Below, piece after piece: positions 25,916 through 37,824 of a stretch of 37,824 nt of DNA. A program made the position numbers and the translations under genes. The notes beneath the pieces are model-generated. The model was not told the origin of the DNA. It did not search any database and worked only from the letters and a program-made list of their open reading frames with translations. The stretch comes from Bifidobacterium breve (GTDB lineage: Bacteria; Actinomycetota; Actinomycetes; S36-B12), in the NCBI GenBank assembly GCA_945870085.1, contig CAMBQX010000002.1, positions 1 to 37,824 on the forward strand, given 5' to 3'. Position 1 is the first letter of the stretch. Each line of letters begins with the position of its first letter.

Positions 25916-26929
25916 GTGCCGTCGGCCACCATCAAGATCGAGGCTCGAGAGAAAGCCCGGCAAAGCGGAGTTATGGCTCGACGGGTTCAAGCGTATTCGA
26001 TACTTGTTGCGTGGGCGTTCCTTATCTTAGTATTCACTCTTCTGCTGCCCGATACCTTCCTCACTATTCAAAATTTCACCGCCATCGCCAACTCGAAGAC
26101 CGCTACTGTTCTGCTCACTTTGGGCTTGATCTTTGCACTTGCCGCTGGCGAATTTGACTTGAGCATCGGGGCGGCGCTTTCCTTGGGGGCAGCGATCCCG
26201 GCGTGGCTGTACGACGTATACGGGACTCCAGTTTTGATCGGTATCCTCGTCGCGTTGATGGCGGCCGCCCTGATGGGAGCATTAAACGCCTTACTTTCAG
26301 TGAGATACAGCATCCCTTCGCTGGTGGTAACCCTTGGTACCGGAACGGCCGTCATTGGCTTGGTGGCCGGCATCGTCGGTAACAGTACAATTTCGATTCG
26401 CGGCGACTGGTGGAACGAGGTGCTCACCCACCGTACCTTCGGTCTCTACACCTCGTTTTGGATCGTGATGCTGATCGCCTTGATTATTTGGTATATCCTT
26501 CAACAGACTCCGATCGGCCGGCACCTTTATTTTGTGGGCCAAGGTCGTGAGGTTGCCCGCCTTGCGGGTATCAGGGTGAATGCTTACCGATACGCAGCCC
26601 TGATCACGTCAGCGACACTTGGCTGTCTCGCTGGAGCGTTCCTGCTCGGGAATACCGGAGCCATCCAAGCGCGGATCGGGCAATTCTTTATTTTGGCTGC
26701 CTTTGCGGCAGCATTTCTAGGGTCCACAGCCATCGTTCCAGGGCGGTTCAATGCCTGGGGCACCGTGGTGGCTGTTTACTTTATTGAGACCGGTATCACC
26801 GGACTACAGCTCCTAGGCCTTCAGGCCTGGGTTTCGGACGTCTTCTACGGCACCGCGCTCGTGGTCGGCGTCCTCGTGGCTACTCTTGCCACACGTTTGC
26901 GGTCGCGCCTTTCGGCACGGTCGACTTGA
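25916..26929 (+). CDS. ABC transporter permease (RbsC/AraH-type, sugar-class)
   Basis: 337 aa with a GTG start. Roughly 9-10 hydrophobic spans with ribose-type permease composition. Followed by the binding-protein and ATPase genes. Confidence 0.8.
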   Translation: MPSATIKIEAREKARQSGVMARRVQAYSILVAWAFLILVFTLLLPDTFLTIQNFTAIANSKTATVLLTLGLIFALAAGEFDLSIGAALSLGAAIPAWLYDVYGTPVLIGILVALMAAALMGALNALLSVRYSIPSLVVTLGTGTAVIGLVAGIVGNSTISIRGDWWNEVLTHRTFGLYTSFWIVMLIALIIWYILQQTPIGRHLYFVGQGREVARLAGIRVNAYRYAALITSATLGCLAGAFLLGNTGAIQARIGQFFILAAFAAAFLGSTAIVPGRFNAWGTVVAVYFIETGITGLQLLGLQAWVSDVFYGTALVVGVLVATLATRLRSRLSARST

Positions 26930-26946
26930 TTACGAGAGGAACACAT

Positions 26947-28167
26947 ATGAAGCAGCGCAGCATTAAGCGCTCTCTTGGGCAGCTAGCTGCCCTCGGGATC
27001 GTATCGGCCGTCGTCTTGACGGCCTGCGGTGGCAGCAGCAGTGGCGAGGCCACGTCTGCTGCGCCTGAACCAGCCCCGGTAGTTGCATCGGAAGCACCCG
27101 CGGAAGCCGCAGCAACTGAGGCTCCAGCACCTGGTCCAGCCGATGGGGTTGTGGAGGCGTTGGCTCGCTACGATGCAGCCAAGGCGCCAATCGTTTTCAG
27201 TTACCCGGGTGAGGCTTTTGATGCCGCCGCTTCGGCAAAGGGCAAGAAAGTCGCAATTATTTCTTGGGACGATCGCATCCCGATTTTGGCACAGTGGGGC
27301 GACACTATTCAGGCAGGTTTTCAGGATTACGGGGTGAAGGTCTCCCGCTCCTCGGCTGACTTTGACATCGAAGCCATCCCAGGTCTGTTCGCGCAGGCAG
27401 TCGCTGCCAAAGTCGACCTGATCGTGACAAACGCCATTCCGGGCGTCGTGGTCCCATTCGACACCATCGGCGACATTCCCGTGATGACAACTAATCAAAC
27501 AGCTAAGCCAGGGGTTGCGGCTGCTGACGGCATTATCGCGGACGTCTCCTTTGACTACACGATCCCAGCCCGCCTGATGGCTGACTGGTACATCGTTACC
27601 TCCGAAGGTGGCACGAAGGGCGATGCCCAAGTAGTGGCCTCAGAGGGTCAGGCATCAAGCCCGATCATGGTTGAAGAAATGCAGGCGGAAATTGCAGAAC
27701 TGTGCCCCGACTGCAAGGTTAACTTCGCCGATGCGCAACTTGGCTCCTGGTTTGATGGAGTACTGGCCAATGAGACACGCAATGCGCTCACCGCCAATTC
27801 GAACCTCAAGTTCTTGTTGCCGATTTACGATGGTATGACCTTGGCCGGTACCGACCCAGGCATCTCCGACGCTGGTAGCGACGCCACTCAGGCTTCGTTC
27901 AACGCGACCCCAGATGTCATGAAGGGTCTCGGTACCAGCTCGGTGAAAATGGACGTCGGCTGCCCGAATGACTGGTTCGGCTACGCAGTTGTTGATGCCA
28001 GTATGCGCATCTTCGCCGGAGCACCTTCCATCGCTGACTACGGCATCACCTGCCGCGTTTTCGACGCCGGGAACATCGGGGACATCGACCCATCAACGGA
28101 GAATTCCATGAACTGGTATGCAATTGACTTCTTAAAGGAGTTCAAGAGCTACTGGGGCACTCCGTAA
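26947..28167 (+). CDS. ABC transporter substrate-binding lipoprotein (type-I periplasmic-binding-protein-like), substrate unknown
   Basis: ATG at 26947 after GAGAGGA. Signal peptide with the lipobox LTAC, then an Ala/Pro/Glu-rich linker. Sits between the permease and ATPase genes. Confidence 0.7.
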   Translation: MKQRSIKRSLGQLAALGIVSAVVLTACGGSSSGEATSAAPEPAPVVASEAPAEAAATEAPAPGPADGVVEALARYDAAKAPIVFSYPGEAFDAAASAKGKKVAIISWDDRIPILAQWGDTIQAGFQDYGVKVSRSSADFDIEAIPGLFAQAVAAKVDLIVTNAIPGVVVPFDTIGDIPVMTTNQTAKPGVAAADGIIADVSFDYTIPARLMADWYIVTSEGGTKGDAQVVASEGQASSPIMVEEMQAEIAELCPDCKVNFADAQLGSWFDGVLANETRNALTANSNLKFLLPIYDGMTLAGTDPGISDAGSDATQASFNATPDVMKGLGTSSVKMDVGCPNDWFGYAVVDASMRIFAGAPSIADYGITCRVFDAGNIGDIDPSTENSMNWYAIDFLKEFKSYWGTP

Positions 28168-28216
28168 CTAGCACCTGCAGCATCAAGTTGGTGTAGTAAC
28201 TCTAAGGGAAGGGAAC

Positions 28217-30181
28217 GTGGTGGCCGAAACAGTCCTGCAGATTACGGGACTGTCGAAGACCTTCGGGGCAACTCGAGCGCTCATTGATGTTGACTTCAGT
28301 GTGCAAGCGGGTGAGGTTCATGGGCTTGTGGGGCGAAATGGCTCAGGCAAGTCCACCCTCATCAAGGTGCTTAGTGGTTACCACGTTCCCGACCCAGGGA
28401 GCCAGCTCACTCTTGGCGGGCGAGAAGTCCAGTTGCCCATTTCTGGTCGGCAAGCCGCGGCCCACGGCCTGGTGTTTGTGCACCAAGATCTAGGCTTGGT
28501 CCCCGCCTACAGCGTGCTAGAGAACATCCGGCTCAATTCTTGGAATGCCCACGGCTTCGAGCGTATTCATTGGAAAACCGAGACCGCGGAGGTTGAGGAA
28601 GAATTAGACCGCTTTGACCTTAATGTCAGGGCAGAAACACCAGTCGCGGCTCTTTCCCAGGTTGATCGTGCGATCGTCGCGATCGTAAGGGCGATGCATC
28701 ACCTTGGTAAGGACGGAAGAGGCAAGGTACTCGTGCTCGATGAGCCGACCGCCTATCTACCAAAAGATAGTGTTGAGCGAGTCTTTGAGGCCGTACGCAC
28801 CGTGGCCCAAACCGGAGCCGGCGTGGTCCTCGTCAGCCACCGCACGGACGAGGTGCTTTCACTCACCGACCGCATTACCGTCTTGCGTGATGGGCGCAGA
28901 GTTGACACTTTGATTACTTCTAAAACTGATGAACAAACTTTGGTCTCACTCATTCTTGGCCAAACCCTGTCGTCTTTCTACCCTGATCAGGTCACTGCAA
29001 AGTACGGCGATAGAGTCCTTGAAGTCGAAAAATTAAACGGTGGTCTCGTGCGGGATTTTAATATTACTGTTAACCGCGGTGAAATTGTCGGCCTTACCGG
29101 GCTAATGGGCGCCGGTCATGACGAAGTCCCCTACTACATTTTCGGAGCCCGGGATGCAAGTTCGGGACACATTGTCGTTAATAACCAAATACTGAAAACC
29201 CAAAAAGCCAGGCCTTCTAAAGCAATCGCAGCCGGTGTAGTGCTCCTCCCTGCCGATCGGCTCAATCTTTCAGGATCGGCCGCGGCCTCTGTCGAGGACA
29301 ACGTCGTGGTTCCGGTTTTCTGGCGCTACTTCTCCGGTGGTCGATTGAAGCTTGCCCAGATTCGCACACGCGTCAATTACCTGCTTGAGACCTTCGATGT
29401 CCGACCGGCACTACCCACTCTCGAGTTTAGTTCACTCTCGGGAGGCAATCAACAAAAGACCCTGCTTGCGAAATGGCTGCAGATGGAACCCGCCCTTCTG
29501 CTACTTCATGAGCCAACCCAGGGCGTAGACGTTGGCAGCAAGTCTGAAATTTTCTCCCGCATCACCGATGCGGCCGAAGCAGGTGCAGCGGTCATCATCG
29601 CGAGCGCTGAATATGAAGATCTTGCGAATTTGTGCACCCGAGTCCTCGTATTCGACAGCGGTCGCGTGGTGGGGGAAGTCTCTGGGGCTGAAATGTCGGC
29701 GGATCGCCTCCTCGATCTTTGCTACCGGGGCGCCCGCGCACGTGGAGCACACGGAATGATCTTTCAGTGGCGCCCCTACCGGATTGGTTTCGTTCCTCAA
29801 GGAATAGAGCCGGAGTTCATTGAAACTCCAGCTCCAGTAAGTGTTTCATATGTTTTTCAGTGGCGCCCCCACCGGGTAGGTTTTGTTAAACTTCTAACTT
29901 TGCAGAAAGCAATGGAGCCGGTTGCCACACCTTCACTAGAGCGTGTCTTTCAATGGCGCCCCCACCGGGTAGGTTTTGTTCCTCAAGGAATAGAGCCGGA
30001 GTTCATTGAAACTCCAGCTCCAGTAAGTGTTTCATATGTTTTTCGGTGGCGCCCCCACCGAGTAGGTTACGTTGAACTTCTAACTTTGCAGAACTCAATG
30101 GAGCCGGTTGCCACACCTTCACTAGAGCGTGTCTTTAGGTGGCGCCCCCACCGGGTAGGTTACTTTGACGCTGCCGAGTGA
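28217..30181 (+). CDS. Tandem-domain sugar-type ABC ATPase (RbsA/MglA-like). The core ends near aa 505-513, and the ORF runs on in frame through a repeat array
   Basis: GTG start after AAGGGAAGGGA. NBD1 has GRNGSGKST and VLVLDEPT. NBD2 has LSGGNQQK and LLLLHEPTQGVD. The ATPase-like sequence ends around ...SADRLLDLCYRG. The last ~141 codons (29756-30181) are the repeats. Whether that tail is translated as part of the ATPase is unresolved. Confidence 0.8.
   Translation: MVAETVLQITGLSKTFGATRALIDVDFSVQAGEVHGLVGRNGSGKSTLIKVLSGYHVPDPGSQLTLGGREVQLPISGRQAAAHGLVFVHQDLGLVPAYSVLENIRLNSWNAHGFERIHWKTETAEVEEELDRFDLNVRAETPVAALSQVDRAIVAIVRAMHHLGKDGRGKVLVLDEPTAYLPKDSVERVFEAVRTVAQTGAGVVLVSHRTDEVLSLTDRITVLRDGRRVDTLITSKTDEQTLVSLILGQTLSSFYPDQVTAKYGDRVLEVEKLNGGLVRDFNITVNRGEIVGLTGLMGAGHDEVPYYIFGARDASSGHIVVNNQILKTQKARPSKAIAAGVVLLPADRLNLSGSAAASVEDNVVVPVFWRYFSGGRLKLAQIRTRVNYLLETFDVRPALPTLEFSSLSGGNQQKTLLAKWLQMEPALLLLHEPTQGVDVGSKSEIFSRITDAAEAGAAVIIASAEYEDLANLCTRVLVFDSGRVVGEVSGAEMSADRLLDLCYRGARARGAHGMIFQWRPYRIGFVPQGIEPEFIETPAPVSVSYVFQWRPHRVGFVKLLTLQKAMEPVATPSLERVFQWRPHRVGFVPQGIEPEFIETPAPVSVSYVFRWRPHRVGYVELLTLQNSMEPVATPSLERVFRWRPHRVGYFDAAE
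29756..30166. repeat. Tandem array of five 33-nt cores at exact 93-bp spacing, with two alternating 60-nt inter-core segments (186-bp higher-order unit, ~2.2 copies)
   Basis: Cores start at 29762, 29855, 29948, 30041 and 30134 (TTTCAGTGGCGCCCCCACCGGGTAGGTTTTGTT-like). Segment A (29795-29854) is identical to 29981-30040. Segment B (29888-29947) differs from 30074-30133 at 3 nt. Confidence 0.95.
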
Positions 30182-30897
30182 GGCTTCGCAGCGAATACCT
30201 CAAGCCTGACATAGTCGACGCAGCGATCACCCATTGTGCGCGCAACCTGCGTTCGCTGCTCATCGCTGAGACGATGAAGAACAACATTTTTTAGGTAGTC
30301 AAGGTAAATCACGTCTGTTTGAAAAACTGCAGGTGCGATCCGCAGATTAACCTCTATCGGAGTAAGCCCCACGCATCGCAAGTGGCCAATAGTTTCGTCC
30401 ACCCCAGCGTAATGCCAAAGTGGCAACAAGTCTCCAGCGGAGACAGCATCAACGGCCGCCAGAAGACGCTCAATATTACCCTCGCCGCCTGCATCAATTC
30501 GCACGCGGCCCCCAGGTTTGAGGACTCGGGCAACCTGCTCCCAAGCACGTTCAGGCCTCCCCAGCCAGTGAAAAGCAGCGACCGACATCACCGCGTCTAC
30601 GCTTTCTGTTTCAACCGGCCAGGTTTCCATGAGATCAGCAGCGCAGATTTTCACCTGCGCAGAGCCGATGAATCGGCGTTCACATGCGGCACGCATCGTA
30701 GGTGAAGAGTCCAGCCCGATGATGGAACCACGCGGCAAACGAGATAGCGCGAGAGCAGCGTCTCGCCCGCTGCCACAACCGGCATCAACGAGGATCTCGT
30801 TACCGTTGAGTTCCATTTTGTTAACAACCCTTTGCCCCCACTCTTCGTGCGGCAGCGGCAGTGCTTCATACCTGTCAGGGTCCCAAGAAATGGTCAC
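30160..30897 (-). CDS. Class I SAM-dependent methyltransferase, trans-aconitate-methyltransferase (Tam)-like
   Basis: GTG at 30897 overlaps the selD stop (GTGA); the track ORF is over-extended to 31056. N-terminal WDPDRYE, SAM motif I VDAGCGSG, then GLDSSPTM and AAFHWL, as in Tam. Confidence 0.8.
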   Translation of the reverse strand: MTISWDPDRYEALPLPHEEWGQRVVNKMELNGNEILVDAGCGSGRDAALALSRLPRGSIIGLDSSPTMRAACERRFIGSAQVKICAADLMETWPVETESVDAVMSVAAFHWLGRPERAWEQVARVLKPGGRVRIDAGGEGNIERLLAAVDAVSAGDLLPLWHYAGVDETIGHLRCVGLTPIEVNLRIAPAVFQTDVIYLDYLKNVVLHRLSDEQRTQVARTMGDRCVDYVRLEVFAAKPHSAASK

Positions 30898-31901
30898 AAT
30901 GTTCGCCCGCCCGCAGTGATCAACACATCCCGCTCTTCTGGATATTTCCGCGCGTGGACGTGACCAATCGGCCAGAAGCCAGCGGGAATGGGACCCGGAG
31001 CAATAGCGGCCAGCAGACCACCGGATGTCTGTGGATCGACCAAAAGAGCAAGCCAATCCTCAGTGACCCGGATATCGGTGCGGGACTGGACCCACTCTAA
31101 GTTCGTATCGTGAGCAGAGGTGCGCCAACCGGCCAAGGCTAGAGCATGTACTCCATTCAAAAGTGGGATCTTGTCAACGGAAAGCGATACGGTGATGTCT
31201 GATGTGACCAAACCCAGCAGATGGCCAAGCAGCCCGTAGCCAGTGACATCTGTGACCGCATGGGGTCCACCCGAAAGACAGGAAAGTTCACGTGCCGCAT
31301 CCATTGCCGGGGTCTGCATCAAATGAAGAGCCTCCGGTAACACTGATGGATCCTGCGAAGTCACAGCAAGTCCAACTCCCAAAGGCTTGCTCAAGACCAG
31401 AACATCACCAGGTTGGGCGCCAATTATGCGCCACACGCGATCAGGATGCACTACTCCCATCACTGAAAGGCCAAATAGTATTCCGTTCGAATGCACGGTA
31501 TGACCACCGGTAATTAGGCCGCCACAGCCGTGCATGACATCTCGAGCGCCCGCCATCATCGCGGCGATGTACTGCACGTCCGTGTCGCGTGGAAACGCCG
31601 CCAAACTGAGCGCACTTAAGACCTTACCGCCCATCGCGTAAACATCGTTTACCGCATTTGCAGCAGCTACGGCTCCCGAGACGTACGGGTCGAGCGTAAG
31701 TGGTGGGCTGACATCCATGGTGGTGACGATGGCACGAGTTGCGTCAAGAATTTGGACCGCGGCATCGTCAGGCACAGTTAGACCAACAAGAAGTTCAGGT
31801 GGATCCTGGACTTGACGAACCTGATCAACCAGCGTTGCAACCAAGTGTGGCGAGGCTTTCGCCGCACAGCCACCACATTCGCGCGGTGGCCGCTCTAGCA
31901 C
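30894..31901 (-). CDS. selD: Selenide, water dikinase (selenophosphate synthetase), Cys-type
   Basis: 335 aa; the GTG start directly abuts the upstream TAG. Aligns with remembered E. coli SelD: N-loop ECGGCAAKASP (GAGCGCKISP), PDDAAV (RDDAAV), TTMDV (STTDF), AAANAVNDVYAMGG (AATNAISDIFAMGG), AVTDVTGYGLLGH (AMTDVTGFGLLGH), DPQTSGGLL. Confidence 0.85.
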   Translation of the reverse strand: MLERPPRECGGCAAKASPHLVATLVDQVRQVQDPPELLVGLTVPDDAAVQILDATRAIVTTMDVSPPLTLDPYVSGAVAAANAVNDVYAMGGKVLSALSLAAFPRDTDVQYIAAMMAGARDVMHGCGGLITGGHTVHSNGILFGLSVMGVVHPDRVWRIIGAQPGDVLVLSKPLGVGLAVTSQDPSVLPEALHLMQTPAMDAARELSCLSGGPHAVTDVTGYGLLGHLLGLVTSDITVSLSVDKIPLLNGVHALALAGWRTSAHDTNLEWVQSRTDIRVTEDWLALLVDPQTSGGLLAAIAPGPIPAGFWPIGHVHARKYPEERDVLITAGGRTL

Positions 31902-33284
31902 CTAGACACCCTGACCACGCCAAATGTTGACGGCCTTGGATGCATCCTTGGCACCTGCAAGCCCCAGCACACTCTCCAAAATCTGCTGTCCAGCCGACCG
32001 AGTCGTCACAATTTCGATATTCGACATGAACTTTTCCTCGATCTCGATTGCCGAGAGTGGGCGCTCATCAGCCCCACGATTGACCGACTCACGATGTCGC
32101 AATTCCCGGCCATCGGTGGTTGTAATTATTACCTCTCCGCAAAAATGCCTAGGGAAAGTACTCTTCGGATCTATCTCGTATCGAACTCTTGACGCCACCG
32201 CCAGACTAGCGGAATCCGACAATGCTTCTAAATCCAGCTCAGCAAGGGTGAACCGTCGGCGGGTAGCTGCCGTCCCGACCAGATAGGCAAGTGAGAACTT
32301 GGCATCGTAATCTGAACATGGAGTCAGTTTTACCTCTGCGGGTTCGCAGACCACCGGGATAATCTCCGCGGGGACAAGGCACAATATGTCAGCAATATCA
32401 TCGGCGACAAGATCATTTTCAATAACAAGTGCCAAGGTGGCGTCCATGAAAGCATGAGTGAAGTGGCAGGCTGGGTAGGGCTTGATCGCCACACTGAGCA
32501 GTTCCCACTCCTCACCCAAAGCTCGGGTAGCCGCCTGCAAATCAACCTCATGGCCATCAGGGACGTGCGATGCGTACAGCCCAAACCGCCCTTCATAAAC
32601 ATCCGGAGGTGCTTGCCACCCCGCCGCCGCGAACCGCGCGGACATAAGTGCGGTGGAAGCAGCCCATCCAGGATGCATGCGCTTGGTCCACGCACCGGTG
32701 TCAAGGAACTGCAGCGAGCCTGCTGCAAGGCTGCCCACAATTCCTTGTGCCGCGGTAATGCCCTTCACGTCGAGGCCGCTCATTCGTGCGGCCGCGACCG
32801 CGGATCCAAAGGCTCCCACCAAACCTGTGGGGTGAAAACCCTTGGCATGGAAACCGCCATGAGCCCCTGCTCCCACGCGCGCAGAAATCTCGATCGCTAT
32901 CAGATATCCCAACAGTAGATCAGATCCCAAAAGGTGATCGCGTTCAGCGATGGCCATGGCTGTAGGAAGTGCTGAAGCCGATGCGTGGAGAATTCCAGAC
33001 GGATGAGTATCGTCGTAGTCAAGTCCATGTATAAGGATGCCATTGAGTAAAGCCGCGTCACCAAGCGGTAATCGTTGTGGCATCCCAATGACAGATGAAG
33101 GCCCCTCCCCCGAAGTTGCCAGTACCGCGGCGGCAACGAAATCATCACTGGAACAGGCGTATGCCAGGCCAACACAATCTAGAACATGAAGCGCGGCACG
33201 TTCACGAACTTGCTCCGGCACGTCCTCCCATGTGACGCGATGTGCCCACTCAGCAATGCGTGCAGCAATCGGATCGCTTTTCAT
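31902..33284 (-). CDS. MmgE/PrpD family protein (2-methylcitrate-dehydratase-like)
   Basis: ATG at 33284, 13 nt after the upstream stop, with GAGGAG. The track ORF is over-extended to 33413. Typical N-terminus (IAEWAHRVTWEDVPEQVRERAALHVLDCVG), DYDDTH, and a C-terminal PrpD domain. Confidence 0.85.
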   Translation of the reverse strand: MKSDPIAARIAEWAHRVTWEDVPEQVRERAALHVLDCVGLAYACSSDDFVAAAVLATSGEGPSSVIGMPQRLPLGDAALLNGILIHGLDYDDTHPSGILHASASALPTAMAIAERDHLLGSDLLLGYLIAIEISARVGAGAHGGFHAKGFHPTGLVGAFGSAVAAARMSGLDVKGITAAQGIVGSLAAGSLQFLDTGAWTKRMHPGWAASTALMSARFAAAGWQAPPDVYEGRFGLYASHVPDGHEVDLQAATRALGEEWELLSVAIKPYPACHFTHAFMDATLALVIENDLVADDIADILCLVPAEIIPVVCEPAEVKLTPCSDYDAKFSLAYLVGTAATRRRFTLAELDLEALSDSASLAVASRVRYEIDPKSTFPRHFCGEVIITTTDGRELRHRESVNRGADERPLSAIEIEEKFMSNIEIVTTRSAGQQILESVLGLAGAKDASKAVNIWRGQGV

Positions 33285-33297
33285 GTACCTAACTCCT

Positions 33298-34599
33298 CTA
33301 ACGCTCGGATGTAATTGATGTTTTGCTGGTGTCAAATCGCAGTCCAAGGCTCTCCGCGATGGTGGTTCGCTGCACCTCATCGGTACCACCAGGAATGCGG
33401 AGGTTACGAGCAATCTGGAAAAGCTTGTTAATTGAGGTATCGCGCATCACACCAAGGCCACCATGGACTTGCAAAGCGCGATCGGCCACACGATAGAAAC
33501 TTTCATCGTTACTAACCTTCAGGGCGCAGATGCGGCGAATCTCATCACGCGGCCGGGGGATTCGGTACCACGGGCCCGGAGTATCGATTGCTCGCGCCAC
33601 TTCGAGTGATAACGATCTTGTCTGCAGCCAGTCGACGTACATATCCGCAATCATCCACTGGATCCCCTGATTGGCCCCTAACGGCATACCGGCAATCTGT
33701 CTATCGGTGGCACGTTCTAGTGTCCGCTCAATCAAATAGCGACTCCAACCAGAGCACATTCCGGCTCTTCGCATTCGCGTGTAATTGAATGACATCACCG
33801 CAATATCGAATCCCTGCCCTACTTCACCAAGAATCGCACTCTCTGGCAGCACTAGATCATCAAAAAAAATCTCACCGGTGTACCCGTCACCGAACATTGT
33901 TTGATACAGGTTTCCCAACCGGTACCCACGCGACGCGGCTTCTCGCGTATCGAACATAAAATAGGTAAAAGAACGACGGCCACCTTTTGGATCAGTCACC
34001 GCCAGTATCTGTGCAACATCGGCATCAAAGTAGTTGGTTATGTAGGCCTTGGAACCATTTAACACCCAGTCAGACCCGCGCTTCTCGGCCTTGGTCGACA
34101 TATCGAACAAATTGCTTCCGGCGCCAGACTCGGTAACACCGTGAAGGGAAGTCTTTTCGCCGCGAACGAGCGGATCGGTGAACTCTTGACGCTGGTGATC
34201 GTGAGCGAACAGCAAACGAGGAGTTGCTCCCTCCGACCAGGAGAGAAGAGCCGGGTTGAGACCTACCCCGTAGCCGTATACCAACTCCTCGACATAGATC
34301 ATTTCCTCACGCCCCAACCCGAGCCCGCCAAGGTGCTCCGGAAGGTGTGCGCTGTAGATACCTTTTTTCCCCGCTGCACGCATTATTTCGCGGCGAGCCT
34401 GCACGATTTCGGGGTGTAGCCGCCCATCACTATCCAAAAACTCTCGCTCATTGCTCAGCCGGTGTGCAAGAGATGCCTCACGAGGTTCAACCTCCTCGCG
34501 GTGGAGTTGACGAACTTTTTCGAGAATATCCTTCAGGTGCTCAGGGGCCTGAGCATCTTGCAGCAGAACTTCTGATTCATGTGCCGCCGTGCTTACCAT
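33298..34599 (-). CDS. Acyl-CoA dehydrogenase-fold flavoprotein, non-canonical active-site motif
   Basis: 433 aa. ACAD three-domain layout (HGVTESGAGSN, WVLNGSKAYITN, C-terminal helical domain). The usual YEGT reads PGGT. ATG preceded by AAGGAG, with a 7-nt overlap onto the upstream gene. Confidence 0.8.
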   Translation of the reverse strand: MVSTAAHESEVLLQDAQAPEHLKDILEKVRQLHREEVEPREASLAHRLSNEREFLDSDGRLHPEIVQARREIMRAAGKKGIYSAHLPEHLGGLGLGREEMIYVEELVYGYGVGLNPALLSWSEGATPRLLFAHDHQRQEFTDPLVRGEKTSLHGVTESGAGSNLFDMSTKAEKRGSDWVLNGSKAYITNYFDADVAQILAVTDPKGGRRSFTYFMFDTREAASRGYRLGNLYQTMFGDGYTGEIFFDDLVLPESAILGEVGQGFDIAVMSFNYTRMRRAGMCSGWSRYLIERTLERATDRQIAGMPLGANQGIQWMIADMYVDWLQTRSLSLEVARAIDTPGPWYRIPRPRDEIRRICALKVSNDESFYRVADRALQVHGGLGVMRDTSINKLFQIARNLRIPGGTDEVQRTTIAESLGLRFDTSKTSITSER

Positions 34600-35993
34600 C
34601 GGGAGGACTCCTTCATTATTTGGGGGCGTTCAAGATAAATCGGCTCAGTTTCAGGAACAGGCATTGCAATAGGTGAAAGCGGCAGGGCTGATTTTATCGA
34701 AGCACCCGGTCGGTGCCCGACAAAAAATGGGCGTCGCGCCAAACCATGCAGGAGTGGTGCAATATCAGCAGCGCGTAGCGAACCGAGCGCCCCCGAAAGT
34801 GCCGCGGTTTCCCCGAACTCTCGGACAGAATCCTTGCGCTGTTCAGGAGCGACAACAACTATGGGTGTGGGGTCACCACTGTGCATGAGTAATCCTTCAC
34901 TTGGTGTCGCGTGGTCACCGGTCACAGCAAGCACGAGATCACCCCGATCAATAATGTCAATAAAAGCCGCGATGGCAGCATCGCACGCTTCTATCGCGGC
35001 TATCTTGGCCTCGGGTTTCTTGGTGTGACCGGCTTCATCCGGTGCCTTTGTATGAACATGAATAAAATCAGGACGCTGCTCTTCACCTAGAAGACGAATG
35101 GCCGACTGGACCCGCGCACTCAGGCCTAGCCCGGCGTCCTCCGCGGGCGCAGCGACATCAACCTCGCGCATCCCTAGGGTTCTAGCCAAACCCCGGTAAA
35201 GCGCACTGCTCGTTACCATGGTCCCTTGCACTCCCACAAGATCAAGAAACGAAAGCGGTTGCCCGGCTATAGACGGCCACTTGGTCGTGGGAACGGTAAT
35301 TTCTAAACCTGCGCATACTAGGGTCGCGTGCGCTCCAAGGAGGTACGCCTTCAGCGCCTCAGCTGTGCGCCGCGCCTCGACTAGTCGGCGCCCACCTGCA
35401 ACGACACATTCTTGTAAAGGCACGGGCAGCATCCAAGGGTGCATGTGATCAAAGAGCGGGTCCGAGTCGCTGACCTCGATCGATTCAAGCCCGTGGGCTA
35501 GCAAAACCCACTCTCCGAGTCGTAGTGATTCAATGCTGAATGAGACACCGTCAACGACGAATTCTTCGGTCCATTCCTGCAGAATCCGATTCAAAGTGTG
35601 GGCAATATCGCTGTGCTGCGACCCCATCCGGCCCGTAATTCGCATAACACCATCAACTTGTTCGCCACGCCGGGCTGCCAAGTGCCACATCGGCGTACCC
35701 AGTGGCGGGACTCCACCCTCACCAACCCACTCAAGAAGAGCCCGGCCTGGAAAAGCCAGCTCCGGTAGTCCGAACATCGCCCAATGCGATCGCTCACTCG
35801 AAGTTGCCCAACCTGGTCCAAAAGGCACATGAACACCGTTGGCTCCTCTCGCGGCTAATTCATCCAGAGCCGGAGTCGAAGCAACTTCTAATGGTGTTCG
35901 CCCACCTAGGGACAAACAGGGACGATCACCCAAACCATCAAGGACTACGAGAACGACGGGTAGGTCATCGCGCTGCGGCCACTTCGACTTCAT
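34593..35993 (-). CDS. ApgM-like cofactor-independent phosphoglycerate-mutase family / alkaline-phosphatase-superfamily phosphomutase
   Basis: ATG at 35993 (ATGA overlap); the track ORF is over-extended to 36053. Metalloenzyme motifs VVLDGLGD, ASTPALDELA, HTKAPDEAGH and TGDHATP. Confidence 0.7.
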   Translation of the reverse strand: MKSKWPQRDDLPVVLVVLDGLGDRPCLSLGGRTPLEVASTPALDELAARGANGVHVPFGPGWATSSERSHWAMFGLPELAFPGRALLEWVGEGGVPPLGTPMWHLAARRGEQVDGVMRITGRMGSQHSDIAHTLNRILQEWTEEFVVDGVSFSIESLRLGEWVLLAHGLESIEVSDSDPLFDHMHPWMLPVPLQECVVAGGRRLVEARRTAEALKAYLLGAHATLVCAGLEITVPTTKWPSIAGQPLSFLDLVGVQGTMVTSSALYRGLARTLGMREVDVAAPAEDAGLGLSARVQSAIRLLGEEQRPDFIHVHTKAPDEAGHTKKPEAKIAAIEACDAAIAAFIDIIDRGDLVLAVTGDHATPSEGLLMHSGDPTPIVVVAPEQRKDSVREFGETAALSGALGSLRAADIAPLLHGLARRPFFVGHRPGASIKSALPLSPIAMPVPETEPIYLERPQIMKESSRW

Positions 35994-36520
35994 GTGGTGC
36001 TCATTCTCATTGGCAACCCCGAGGCGACTCCGTCCGGCAGGAGTGGCCGCCATGCTGCTTCATCACCCTTAAGCCAGGCCAGACGAATATCTGTGGCTCG
36101 GACGGCGTGCAATGCGTCGCCCTCGATAACCCTAACCGGGTACCCACCCGTTTGCAGTATCTGCACCTTGTCAGCCTCCCAATTCGTGAAGACCCGAACA
36201 AACTGCACCGCATCCAACGGAATGTAACTGGACCACGCCTTTGGACGATCGAGAGGAAAAGGAACTATGTGACAACGATCTTGCAGGCCCTTGTATTCAA
36301 GGGCCGATTGAATCATGTTCTGACGCTCCCAGTAGGTGAAGGGGTTCGACTCAGGTTGATGCCGATGTGCTGACGATGCATTTGCTTTCCACGATGCAGG
36401 ATCTGGATTAGTAATCCCAATAAAGACGATCTCGGCTTCGGCCAAGGCGATGTTCAATAATTCCCAGTGGCCAATATGAAAGGGTTGAAACCGACCCGTT
36501 ATCCCAGCCCGAGTCAGCAC
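35990..36520 (-). CDS. NadM-like nucleotidyltransferase (nicotinamide-nucleotide adenylyltransferase / cytidylyltransferase superfamily)
   Basis: 176 aa with a GTG start. (H/T)xGH motif GRFQPFHIGH and a second motif, RATDIR. Confidence 0.7.
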   Translation of the reverse strand: MLTRAGITGRFQPFHIGHWELLNIALAEAEIVFIGITNPDPASWKANASSAHRHQPESNPFTYWERQNMIQSALEYKGLQDRCHIVPFPLDRPKAWSSYIPLDAVQFVRVFTNWEADKVQILQTGGYPVRVIEGDALHAVRATDIRLAWLKGDEAAWRPLLPDGVASGLPMRMSTT

Positions 36521-36527
36521 TGCTTCA

Positions 36528-37190
36528 TCACCGAGCCCGCGACTCCAGATGGACTATCACTTCAGCCGAACTATTGAGATCTGCATACCTCCGTGACACA
36601 TCTCGCATATTGTCTTCGTGTGGCCCCAGTTCTTGATCTCCGCAGGCATCCTCGACAACAATCGTTTTGAATCCGTGACTGAACGAATCAACGATTGATG
36701 CACGCACACAGCCCGAGGTCGTAACTCCCATGATCAAAACAGTGTCAACTCCGCGATTTCTTAGGATGGTGCTCAGATCGGTTCCGAAGAATGCCGATGG
36801 ATACCTCTTAATCAAATAGATATCTGAGTCTTCCCACAACTGCGGAAGTATCGAAGCAGCGTGTGAATTCGGTGCGATATCTCGCAAACTCGGGACCTTC
36901 CAGTTTGTGAACTCATCATTATGAGTCCAAGCAACCGCCGTATGAACAACAGGAATTCCAGCCTGGCGCCCCACTGACAGCACACTCTCGGCGTTCTTAA
37001 CCGCCTGCGCAATATGCTCACTACGGCCCGTGGCGAAACTCGGATCGCAAAAAGCCTGTTGGAAATCAACCGCAACAATCGCGGGGCAAGTACCCCAGCC
37101 GACAGTAGTAATACCGTATCCAGCTTCAGCAAACTGATCTTTAATAGCTTTTACCGCCCTTCCTCGGAGGCTAGTGGTGCATCCCTGCTT
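36528..37190 (-). CDS. Isochorismatase-family amidohydrolase (N-carbamoylsarcosine-amidase / nicotinamidase-like), start unresolved
   Basis: Catalytic D/K/C contexts PAIVAVDFQQAF, LIKRYPSAF and TTSGCVR. The frame is open from 37190, but the first in-frame ATG/GTG/TTG is the GTG at 36983, which would delete the Asp strand. An SD-ATG at 37199 is followed by GAA TGA in the same frame. Confidence 0.65.
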   Translation of the reverse strand, partial: KQGCTTSLRGRAVKAIKDQFAEAGYGITTVGWGTCPAIVAVDFQQAFCDPSFATGRSEHIAQAVKNAESVLSVGRQAGIPVVHTAVAWTHNDEFTNWKVPSLRDIAPNSHAASILPQLWEDSDIYLIKRYPSAFFGTDLSTILRNRGVDTVLIMGVTTSGCVRASIVDSFSHGFKTIVVEDACGDQELGPHEDNMRDVSRRYADLNSSAEVIVHLESRAR

Positions 37191-37464
37191 TCATTCCATT
37201 GGACGCTCCATACCCGCAACTGCCCTATCACCGCAGTCTATCGGGGAATCCAGATATCGGCGCCCGAGGTGACCCCATACTCCAAGGTCCTCGCATACTC
37301 CCAGGCGAACAAAAGTGCTACAGCCAAGGAGGTCTACTCAGGTAATTGGAGTACCGATAACGATCGAGTCCTCGGGGCGGTAGGCGCAGGGAGCACTGGG
37401 CGCTGCGGTAGATTGCGACAAACAAGTCCAGTACGTTGTCACTGCTTCCACTGAGGAGACATTA

Positions 37465-37824
37465 ATCCGCGGCCAGCCAGCTGCACGCAGCGCGATCGCG
37501 GTCCTTGGGGCCGCGGTAATCGCGCAGGTAAGTATCTCAGGGTTTCAGCAGGGCCTGCCAGCTCTCGGGCCGATTCTTCAAACCACCTTTTCCCTGGACA
37601 CTTCGGGCACCGGTGCCATCTTGGGAGTGGGAAGTCTAGGAACGGCAGTGGCTGTCTTGATTTGGGGCAGGCTAACGGACCGCACCACCGATCGTTTCGT
37701 AGCCGTATTCGGCTTGCTCCTCGCTTCAGTCTCTTTGGGCTTGGCTGGGTTTGCTGCACACATCGATTCGCTGCCCGGCCTAATGCTTGGTCTCTTTGCT
37801 ACCGGTATCTGTGCGGCCGCCCCT
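37465..37824 (+). CDS. MFS transporter (5' part; runs off the window end), start unresolved
   Basis: In-frame translation gives TM1/TM2 and the MFS motif A (GRLTDRTTDR). There is no ATG/GTG/TTG between the in-frame TAG (37381) and TM1. An ATC at 37465 sits 6 nt after GAGGAG. Confidence 0.55.
   Translation, partial: MRGQPAARSAIAVLGAAVIAQVSISGFQQGLPALGPILQTTFSLDTSGTGAILGVGSLGTAVAVLIWGRLTDRTTDRFVAVFGLLLASVSLGLAGFAAHIDSLPGLMLGLFATGICAAAP

Follow-up and report, generated by a model that had tools for sequence, protein, structure and literature searches.

Few uses of selenophosphate have been described. Selenocysteine, selenouridine and the cofactor of molybdenum hydroxylases have been joined since 2022 by the selenosugar-derived selenoneine and ovoselenol, and a 2026 review names only selenocysteine, selenouridine, a molybdoenzyme cofactor, selenoneine and ovoselenol as uses of selenium. 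Organisms that carry selD, the gene for selenide, water dikinase (selenophosphate synthetase), without a known partner for it (orphan SelD) have posed an open problem since 2008-2016. Peng et al. 2016 (ISME J, PMC5029168) scored 26 orphan-SelD organisms, including a freshwater actinobacterial single-cell genome, reported isochorismatase-like and ABC-ATPase genes near orphan selD in no fewer than three organisms of different phyla, and proposed an unknown SelD-dependent trait. Here we analyze a seven-gene operon with an intact selD on the minus strand of a 37,824-nt stretch of contig CAMBQX010000002.1, recorded as Bifidobacterium breve; this whole stretch is referred to below as the window. The operon probably encodes a dedicated selenophosphate-consuming pathway that is distinct from the known ones, with an ApgM-like enzyme as the handler of selenophosphate.

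The sen and ovs clusters, in which SenC is the SelD and acts with SenB and SenA, resemble this locus in that selD is translationally coupled to genes for small-molecule enzymes, and in that selenophosphate is destined for a metabolite and not for tRNA or protein, as we propose here; a GT-B glycosyltransferase (GT20) also recurs near clusters of the window's type. The sen cluster was discovered through genes that overlap selD, and the same logic is applied here. The operon has no SenB or SenA, however, and its nucleotidyltransferase, its alkaline-phosphatase-superfamily enzyme and its acyl-CoA dehydrogenase (ACAD)-fold protein are foreign to known selenium pathways. The PSTK/SepSecS system with SPS2 would share a chemical principle with the pathway proposed below, the conversion of a hydroxyl into a phosphate leaving group followed by installation of selenium from selenophosphate with loss of phosphate, but it acts on tRNA-bound serine through a PLP enzyme, whereas no tRNA, PLP enzyme or SelB accompanies the selD studied here. 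The orphan-SelD loci of Peng et al. share with the window the isochorismatase-like and ABC-ATPase genes that flank selD; the core of nucleotidyltransferase, ApgM-like enzyme and ACAD-fold protein, its fusions and its cross-phylum spread were not recognized in that study. We found no description of this cluster in the literature, and the 2022 genome-mining paper behind the sen cluster makes no mention of this gene set.

Layout of the operon and identity of its SelD

The seven genes are listed here in the order of their transcription, with positions in the window.

36528-37145, minus strand: isochorismatase-family cysteine hydrolase of the amidase type (PF00857, 92 bits); probable AUU start, stop at 36528
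35990-36520, minus strand: HxGH nucleotidyltransferase, archaeal-NMNAT-like (PF01467); core gene
34593-35993, minus strand: ApgM-like alkaline-phosphatase-superfamily phosphotransferase (PF01676 and PF10143); core gene and cluster hub
33298-34599, minus strand: atypical ACAD-fold flavoprotein (all three ACAD Pfam domains), called the atypical ACAD below; core gene
31902-33284, minus strand: MmgE/PrpD-family protein (PF03972 and PF19305); frequent accessory
30894-31901, minus strand: SelD, selenide, water dikinase (selenophosphate synthetase), Cys type (TIGR00476)
30160-30897, minus strand: class I SAM-dependent methyltransferase (PF08241, PF13649 and related domains); lineage-restricted accessory

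This arrangement was derived from the listing of open reading frames (ORFs), from Pfam and NCBIfam scans, and from independent metagenome gene calls on 24 contigs with an identical SelD. All three bear out the gene order given in the initial annotation. Its six junctions are also exact; in transcription order they are a 7-nt gap, a 4-nt overlap, a 7-nt overlap, a 13-nt gap, 0 nt and a 4-nt overlap; at the last of these the GTG start of the methyltransferase gene overlaps the selD stop. The seven minus-strand genes and their junctions are confirmed. The chosen start codons agree with domain boundaries and with the metagenome gene calls, and comparison with a 97%-identical relative (L013) gave ratios of nonsynonymous to synonymous substitution (dN/dS) between 0.07 (SelD) and 0.22 (amidase) for the seven genes, which signifies purifying selection.

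One boundary had to be moved. The operon had been taken to extend up to 37199, but the ATG there reads on directly into GAA TGA. The amidase frame is open as far as this TGA (37191-37193), and the first ATG, GTG or TTG below it lies at 36983, a start that would remove the catalytic Asp. Homologues of the amidase begin with MSDDEF or MSDSFE at the equivalent of window position 37145, where an ATT follows a Shine-Dalgarno-like GGAAGGG and where both the window and L013 read GCT ATT AAA GAT CAG. Because no canonical start precedes 36983, the homologous N-termini fall here and the motif is common to the two sequences, a non-canonical AUU at 37145 is the likeliest reading of the amidase start. The TGA at 37191-37193 was also considered as a selenocysteine codon. 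This reading was rejected because the TGA comes third in a frame opened by an isolated ATG, the homologues begin downstream of it, and there is no Rfam or tRNA-Sec signal. The nucleotidyltransferase poses a different start-site problem. In public metagenome gene calls it is 108 aa long, with a start downstream of the HxGH motif. This call drops the sequence GRFQPFHIGH, and we therefore take the 176-aa form with a GTG start to be right; the short call also leaves the precomputed Pfam annotation empty, so that automated neighbourhood analyses would miss the gene.

The window's SelD scores 269 bits against TIGR00476 (cut-off 125) and aligns with E. coli SelD (3u0o) at E = 2e-40; it falls below the narrower model NF002098 (216 bits against a cut-off of 299), and the ThiL and HypE models reach at most 60 bits on it. 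The Cys and Lys of the N-loop and the Asp/Asn ligands, which the initial annotation had named as essential and described as kept, do align with the structure, C12, K15, D46, D63, N82, D86 and D218 matching E. coli C17, K20, D51, D68, N87, D91 and D227. The N-loop reads ECGGCAAK, and the operon SelDs have Cys, never Sec, at this site. By these comparisons the protein is a genuine SelD, inside the true SelD family and not in another PurM-like one, and homology predicts that it makes selenophosphate from selenide and ATP. Phylogeny, which had been named as one way in which the assignment might fail, agrees: in a simple neighbour-joining tree, calculated without support values, a 46%-identical SelD encoded in a selB-selD-selA operon falls in the midst of the SelDs linked to this operon type. 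The CxxC form of the N-loop was considered as a marker of operon SelDs and discarded. A near-identical GGCxxK occurs in all 120 best SelD matches, and the upstream Cys in 116 of them; since these matches include both the selB-selD-selA SelD and one without the core genes, and the tree mixes them, the motif is not operon-specific.

None of the known partners of SelD accompanies the operon, as the initial annotation had stated. We found no selA, selB or tRNA-Sec in the 37.8-kb window or in the 21-kb loci around related operons, and no selU in the window or in the related loci examined. SenB (TIGR04348) and an EgtB/OvoA-like SenA were missing among the operon and window proteins, and yqeB, yqeC and xanthine-dehydrogenase-family or molybdenum-hydroxylase domains were missing from the window, as were tRNA genes, selC among them, and Rfam matches of any kind.

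The conserved core and its natural fusions

An identical SelD occurs on contigs in 37 blocks of a metagenome collection, and the same operon was present at all six of the places listed. A SelD with 52% identity lies on a 264-kb contig within the same seven genes in the same order. Searches with the ApgM-like protein led to many gammaproteobacterial relatives at 45-50% identity. With NT for the nucleotidyltransferase, APGM for the ApgM-like enzyme and ACAD for the ACAD-fold protein, a complete Steroidobacteraceae chromosome reads PrpD-NT-APGM-ACAD-SelD, and a second Steroidobacteraceae genome reads NT-APGM-ACAD-SelD in unrelated surroundings. The SelD search returned one match of 48% identity within TauE-NT-APGM-ACAD-SelD and another match without the core genes. 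A gene for a TauE/SafE-family anion transporter stands directly before one NT-APGM-ACAD-SelD cluster at L093:3872-4687, a locus of subtype A1 as defined below.

A family-alignment scan of GTDB, with one genome per species, recovered at least 555 ApgM-like relatives, and the loci of the best 80 were analyzed by tblastn; a locus was considered evaluable where the contig extended for at least 4 kb on both sides. Among these best 80, the nucleotidyltransferase, ApgM-like and ACAD-fold genes occur together wherever the contig is long enough, and the nucleotidyltransferase gene directly adjoins the ApgM-like gene in 77. This trio is the conserved core. The 35 loci of subtype A1 have an atypical ACAD at least 75% identical to that of the window and come from freshwater Actinomycetota, several gammaproteobacterial families and a Rhodospirillales metagenome-assembled genome (MAG). 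All 24 evaluable A1 loci contain selD, 22 contain a PrpD-family gene and 15 a GT20 gene. Subtype A2 (5 loci, ACAD-fold protein about 64% identical) has an adjacent selD in 0 of 3 evaluable loci. Subtype B (35 loci, about 40% identical), found in Pseudonocardia, Actinomycetospora, Actinoallomurus, Burkholderiales and Thermoleophilia, has the order ACAD-NT-APGM. Of its 23 evaluable loci, 4 have selD next to the core. In several Pseudonocardia and in Actinoallomurus the gene separates ACAD from NT, and in a Thermoleophilia MAG it follows APGM. Cultured strains with selD within the cluster are Pseudonocardia parietis DSM 45256, P. hydrocarbonoxydans NBRC 14498, P. bannensis DSM 45300 and Actinoallomurus sp. 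NPDC050550. In the high-GC loci of subtype B, de novo ORF clustering was noisy, with many antisense ORFs, and a filter on GC at third codon positions (GC3) recovered the context in part. Table S1 of Peng et al. 2016 (PMC5029168) lists selD together with selA and selB in 4 of 5 Pseudonocardia genomes and in the one Actinomycetospora genome. As these surveyed genera have a selD elsewhere, SelD may be supplied in trans to subtype B.

At least five architectures join selD to the core: NT-APGM-ACAD-SelD, ACAD-PrpD-SelD, ACAD-SelD-NT-APGM, NT-APGM-SelD-ACAD and a fusion of the ApgM-like protein with SelD. Given this recurrence in distant lineages, the arrangement is not chance. The initial annotation had asked whether the neighbourhood exists in any other genome, and it recurs in other phyla; the description of the locus as a conserved SelD operon unlike the known contexts thus stands, while the PrpD-family protein and the methyltransferase do not belong to the core (see the next section).

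The nucleotidyltransferase carries GRFQPFHIGH at residues 9-18 (H15-x-G-H18) and RATDIR at residue 141. Its scores against NMNAT/NadM models are 63 bits (cut-off 127) and 56 bits (cut-off 181), and against archaeal NMNAT structures about 36 bits. By motif and profile it belongs to the fold and superfamily of NadM, the archaeal NMN adenylyltransferase, and with scores under the curated cut-offs it was not filed as NadM itself. The ApgM-like enzyme shows a similar pattern. TIGR00306 (apgM) gives 209 bits against a cut-off of 320, equivalog models give 128-186 bits against cut-offs of 426-489, and the PhpG model NF038358 gives 146 bits against 545, so that neither the ApgM nor the PhpG name applies. 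Its nearest kin is archaeal cofactor-independent phosphoglycerate mutase (iPGM), which the family profile matches at 266 bits (2zkt). The residues D19, S66, D319/H323 and D360/H361 do not vary among 29 family members and have aligned counterparts in 2zkt, that of S66 being the Ser of the GSD motif. On this alignment the enzyme keeps the catalytic set of the alkaline-phosphatase superfamily, a Ser nucleophile and Asp/His metal ligands.

A profile search of 1.84 billion representative proteins revealed two kinds of fusion. In P0244 (618 aa, on three contigs) the nucleotidyltransferase is fused to the ApgM-like enzyme, and in P0248 (825 aa; four sequences on four contigs) the ApgM-like enzyme is fused to SelD through a low-complexity linker. 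The gene for the second fusion is flanked by genes for a nucleotidyltransferase and a CoA-transferase, with two copies of the atypical ACAD, amidases, a methyltransferase and methylaspartate ammonia-lyase nearby. At L097:846-6847 the first fusion stands between a mesaconyl-CoA-hydratase-like gene and tauD-cysC-cysN-cysD, the latter associated with sulfate/selenate activation. Because the fusions chain the nucleotidyltransferase, the ApgM-like enzyme and SelD together, the ApgM-like enzyme, and not the PrpD-family protein or the methyltransferase, is most likely the protein that touches selenophosphate, and it forms the hub of the cluster. The suggestion in the initial annotation that a phosphomutase and a nucleotidyltransferase act as an activation module gains support from the natural fusion of the two.

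The ACAD-fold protein departs from its family at the active site. Gly404 occupies the position of the canonical catalytic Glu (MCAD E376), IYEGT being replaced by IPGGT here and by IPAGT in subtype B, and Thr274 occupies the alternative position used by IVD (E254-type), which holds for the family profile as well. As aligned, the protein is without a catalytic carboxylate and is not a catalytically canonical acyl-CoA dehydrogenase. Its pocket-lining helix reads NYTRMRRAGMCSGW, and R275, R278, G280, M281 and C282 are invariant across the subtypes. The atypical ACAD is 75-86% identical between Actinomycetota and Gammaproteobacteria, compared with 32-50% for SelD, the ApgM-like enzyme and the nucleotidyltransferase, and its dN is 0.21 against 0.5-0.55 for its neighbours. 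Recent horizontal transfer was rejected as the cause; since its synonymous sites show the same saturation as those of the neighbouring genes, this conservation reflects extreme constraint.

The closest described parallel to this protein is found in the LvaA/B/C system and in ACAD10/11. The N-terminal helical extension of the atypical ACAD aligns only with ACAD11 and 4hr3, basic residues line the same pocket helix, and in both cases a phosphotransferase is combined with CoA activation. In ACAD11 and LvaC the 4-phosphoacyl-CoA phosphate is bound by an Arg/His 'HCMR' cluster on this helix. HCMR and a catalytic Asp are features of ACAD10/11 and LvaC, whereas the window's protein has Gly404 and R275-x-x-R278-x-G-M-C282 in a different register; at their phosphate-binding position it reads YTRMRRAGMCSGW, with no Asp. 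Lacking both features, it was rejected as a member of the ACAD10/11/LvaC group. The phosphotransferases differ as well, being of the APH-kinase type in the LvaA/B/C system and of the ApgM type in the window's operon.

Two side observations concern related loci. At L007:6561-9310, directly after NADH dehydrogenase (nuo) genes, lie a 117-aa C-terminal fragment of the atypical ACAD, an intact PrpD-family gene and a 5'-truncated SelD of 243 aa, with proteins 78-93% identical to those of the window; either a copy of the operon has been rearranged or is decaying there, or the assembly is chimeric. Lake MAG records L013, L016, L058 and L071 carry the cluster under the titles 'Bifidobacterium breve', 'Klebsiella pneumoniae' and 'Candidatus Planktophila lacus'. 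Such titles do not fit the gene content (the L058 cluster is of gammaproteobacterial type) and look mislabelled or mis-binned. The source of the window is better regarded as an uncultured actinomycete of fresh water, akin to Nanopelagicales-type MAGs.

Accessory and flanking genes

The PrpD-family protein had been paired with a Tam-like methyltransferase as two enzymes acting on aconitate-like tricarboxylates, which could provide an acceptor for selenophosphate and its methylation. One half of this pairing is retained in altered form. Against the PrpD equivalog the protein scores 31 bits (cut-off 950), and identification as PrpD, the 2-methylcitrate dehydratase, was rejected in favor of membership in the MmgE/PrpD superfamily; its closest solved relatives are iminodisuccinate epimerase (146 bits) and then cis-aconitate decarboxylase. 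Its gene moves within A1 loci, lying before the nucleotidyltransferase gene, after selD, or between the atypical ACAD gene and selD. The other half is not supported: the methyltransferase scores 42-43 bits against Tam models with cut-offs of 297-320, BioC and ArsM models give 60 and 47 bits, its matches among solved structures are generic, and no equivalog model reaches its cut-off. It is present in 12 of the 35 A1 loci, and in L056 it sits beside the ApgM-like gene. The PrpD-family protein is thus a frequent accessory (22 of 24), and the methyltransferase, like the amidase, is a lineage-restricted one; none of them is a core gene.

The amidase has as its best solved relatives 3ot4/3uao, an isochorismatase-family protein that we take to be maleamate amidohydrolase, and N-carbamoylsarcosine amidohydrolase. 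The Asp27, Lys113 and Cys146 motifs (AVDFQ, KRYPSAF and TSGC) are present. A different isochorismatase subfamily adjoins subtype B in 11 loci. Family III CoA-transferases of one subfamily (about 60% identity) lie within the operon in Nanopelagicales-type loci. They adjoin it in Spongiisociaceae, in Acidimicrobiia and in the window's own lineage, where the gene falls just outside the window. GT20 glycosyltransferases (OtsA/GgpS-type) occur near the cluster in about 20 loci and in four arrangements: within the operon after the methyltransferase gene in Nanopelagicales; convergent with selD and accompanied by a trehalose-phosphatase-like gene in Gammaproteobacteria; as APGM-MT-GT20, where MT is the methyltransferase, in an Acidimicrobiaceae MAG; and as ACAD-NT-APGM-GT20 in a Burkholderiaceae MAG (L033:16971-18347, L011:13688-15882, L056:12084-13415, L079:11374-12744 and L094:10852-13080). 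A GT20 gene was also seen near a related selD without the core, and two groups of these glycosyltransferases are only about 25% identical to each other.

Transporter genes border the operon on both sides.

25916-30181, plus strand: convergent ABC importer (Pfam), consisting of a permease (25916-26929), a probable binding protein (26926-28167) and a double-ABC ATPase (28217-30181)
37648-37824, plus strand: 5' part of a divergent MFS transporter gene that runs off the window, mapped from gene calls on L001, which has identical DNA

The ABC importer adjoins the operons of L008, L009 and L014 and those of the L033 type and is absent from proteobacterial loci; because this synteny is confined to Actinomycetota, its link to the operon is uncertain. 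The 413-aa protein encoded at 26926-28167 had no Pfam or NCBIfam match. It has a lipoprotein-like N-terminus and an Ala/Pro/Glu-rich linker, is kept beside the operon in actinobacterial relatives, and is probably a binding protein of an undescribed family. A 186-bp tandem repeat (2.2 copies, 93% matches) occupies 29760-30161 and ends at the methyltransferase stop. The ABC-ATPase ORF runs through it at its 3' end and encodes a repeated tail there (FQWRPHRVGF...). Gene calls for this ATPase measure 482 aa (L003), 592 aa (L001) and 654 aa (L004), with two loci lacking a call; the differing lengths between strains suggest that the copy number of the repeat varies. For the MFS transporter, tblastn matches to the L033 protein adjoin the operon in 25 loci, and an MFS gene neighbours the operon in actinobacterial loci. 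The remainder of the window is made up of ordinary catabolic functions, with genes for aldehyde dehydrogenases, an aminotransferase, amidohydrolases, ABC transporters, a CoA-transferase, an ordinary ACAD, and GntR and AsnC regulators.

A proposed selenophosphate pathway and its alternatives

On balance, and with reservations set out below, we judge it probable that the operon serves a dedicated selenophosphate-consuming pathway, distinct from known ones, in which the ApgM-like enzyme handles selenophosphate; any single chemical step is put forward with much less confidence than this general statement. SelD would make selenophosphate from selenide and ATP, as its homology predicts, and the fusions and conserved adjacency suggest that the product is handed to the ApgM-like enzyme, which would act jointly with the NMNAT-like nucleotidyltransferase. 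Phosphinothricin tripeptide biosynthesis offers a precedent, with one enzyme, a nucleotidyltransferase, activating a small X-PO3 anion and another, of the ApgM family, transferring it further: PhpF converts phosphonoformate and CTP to phosphonoformyl-CMP and PhpG, by the name of model NF038358, is a CMP-5'-phosphonoformate:3-phosphoglycerate phosphonoformyl transferase. Both systems couple an NTP-dependent nucleotidyltransferase to an ApgM-family enzyme, and selenophosphate is also an X-PO3 anion; the window, however, has no PEP mutase or phosphonate genes, and with the PhpG score far under its cut-off the analogy is mechanistic only. By this analogy, the least certain part of the proposal, an X-PO3 anion and an NTP would give NMP-P(X), from which the ApgM-family enzyme would move the X-phosphoryl group to an acceptor; the pair could thus make a nucleotide-activated selenophosphoryl intermediate and then transfer it. 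Alternatively, the phosphatase-type active site of the ApgM-like enzyme might strip phosphate from a first C-Se-PO3 adduct.

The accessory genes point to an acceptor that resembles itaconate, mesaconate or aconitate. It would be a small di- or tricarboxylate, unsaturated or hydroxylated, and would probably be handled as a CoA thioester. A CoA thioester formed no part of the initial annotation and is suggested by the CoA-transferase together with the ACAD fold, and the carboxylate/CoA character of the acceptor by the neighbouring genes for the PrpD-family protein, CoA-transferase, mesaconyl-CoA hydratase and methylaspartate ammonia-lyase. The PrpD-family enzyme and the family III CoA-transferase would supply this acceptor, and the atypical ACAD would bind the acyl-CoA, its Arg pair binding an anionic group and its Cys perhaps carrying or steering selenium. 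The product, an organoselenium metabolite or cofactor, may be tailored by the amidase and the methyltransferase and, in other lineages, by the GT20 enzyme. In its specific form, with the nucleotidyltransferase and ApgM-like pair forming a nucleotide-activated or ester-bound selenophosphoryl intermediate and the base-less, Cys/Arg-lined atypical ACAD then forming a C-Se bond on a dicarboxylyl-CoA, the scheme is tentative, one possibility that we would not yet expect to hold.

Several points weigh against the general proposal. The proposal is drawn from sequence, which does not name the acceptor, the nucleotide or the product, and the nucleotidyltransferase is likened to PhpF by mechanistic analogy. 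The core does not always depend on an adjacent selD, as subtypes A2 (0 of 3) and B (4 of 23) demonstrate. The operon SelDs do not form a separate paralogue clade, and the one in the window could be the cell's only SelD, serving selenocysteine or selenouridine as well. Many neighbours look catabolic, namely importers, CoA-transferases, ordinary ACADs, an HMG-CoA-lyase-like gene, a nitrilase-family hydrolase and GntR regulators.

These last points would be expected if the operon salvaged selenium. An imported organoselenium compound or sulfur/selenium carboxylate would then be degraded as a CoA thioester, the Cys of the atypical ACAD would free selenide, much as 3-sulfinopropionyl-CoA desulfinase frees sulfite, and SelD would trap the selenide for selenocysteine or selenouridine. 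The catabolic-looking surroundings with their ABC and MFS transporters, CoA-transferases, ordinary ACAD, lyase and GntR genes fit this account, as do the direct adjacency of the atypical ACAD gene and selD in most architectures, the membership of the window's SelD in the same clade as a Sec-operon SelD, the selenocysteine trait of most subtype-B genera, and the known presence of selenide-delivering enzymes such as SclA in selD operons. It offers no role, however, for the two partners whose linkage is tightest, namely nucleotidyltransferase and ApgM-like phosphotransferase, and SelD is fused to the latter and not to the atypical ACAD. The GT20 enzyme with its phosphatase and the methyltransferase look biosynthetic, and at least one relative has been classed among the orphan-SelD organisms, though its genome is an incomplete single-cell assembly. 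We consider salvage unlikely.

Less likely again is an account in which the atypical ACAD is itself selenium-dependent, with labile selenium on Cys282 or a modified flavin or nucleotide cofactor, and SelD, the nucleotidyltransferase and the ApgM-like enzyme are its maturation factors, in the way that SelD acts with YqeB/YqeC for selenium-dependent molybdenum hydroxylases. Such a role would suit a protein that is far more conserved than its neighbours, that has an invariant Cys and no catalytic base, and whose highly conserved subtype is exactly the one with an obligatory selD; nucleotidyltransferases of this fold also include FMN and phosphopantetheine adenylyltransferases. But a selenium-modified flavoprotein is without precedent, the PrpD-family protein, CoA-transferase, GT20 enzyme and methyltransferase would be left unexplained, and the same Cys and Arg residues persist in subtype B, which mostly has no selD next to the core. 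We regard this as doubtful.

It is very unlikely that no dedicated selenium chemistry is involved, whether the core is a selenium-independent carboxylate/CoA pathway beside a housekeeping selD or activates and reduces chalcogen oxyanions (selenate, selenite or sulfur) with a general or sulfur-related role for the SelD homologue, since the paucity of adjacent selD genes in A2 and B, the nucleotidyltransferase-ApgM fusion beside cysD, cysN, cysC and tauD, the TauE-family gene flanking one A1 cluster and the place of ATP sulfurylase in the same nucleotidylyl-transferase superfamily are set against selD in 24 of 24 A1 loci across phyla, five architectures and a covalent ApgM-SelD fusion, which make hitch-hiking very unlikely, against a SelD that keeps every residue for selenophosphate synthesis, and against a linkage to PrpD-family and CoA-transferase genes that argues for an organic substrate.

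The core, its fusions and its distribution appear new relative to the prior literature. For the orphan-SelD problem, the cluster is a concrete candidate for another selenium trait; it is widespread, abundant lake bacteria included, it has a defined set of partners, and its natural fusions indicate which protein to test with selenophosphate. If the proposal of a dedicated selenophosphate pathway is true, it would add a new class of enzyme that handles selenophosphate and an organoselenium compound relevant to the freshwater selenium cycle. Should the C-Se bond-forming version also be true, a new family of selenometabolites or cofactors would exist in abundant freshwater Actinomycetota and in Gammaproteobacteria (Steroidobacteraceae and Woeseiaceae), soil actinomycetes with SelD in trans would be producers as well, and part of the orphan-SelD problem would be explained.

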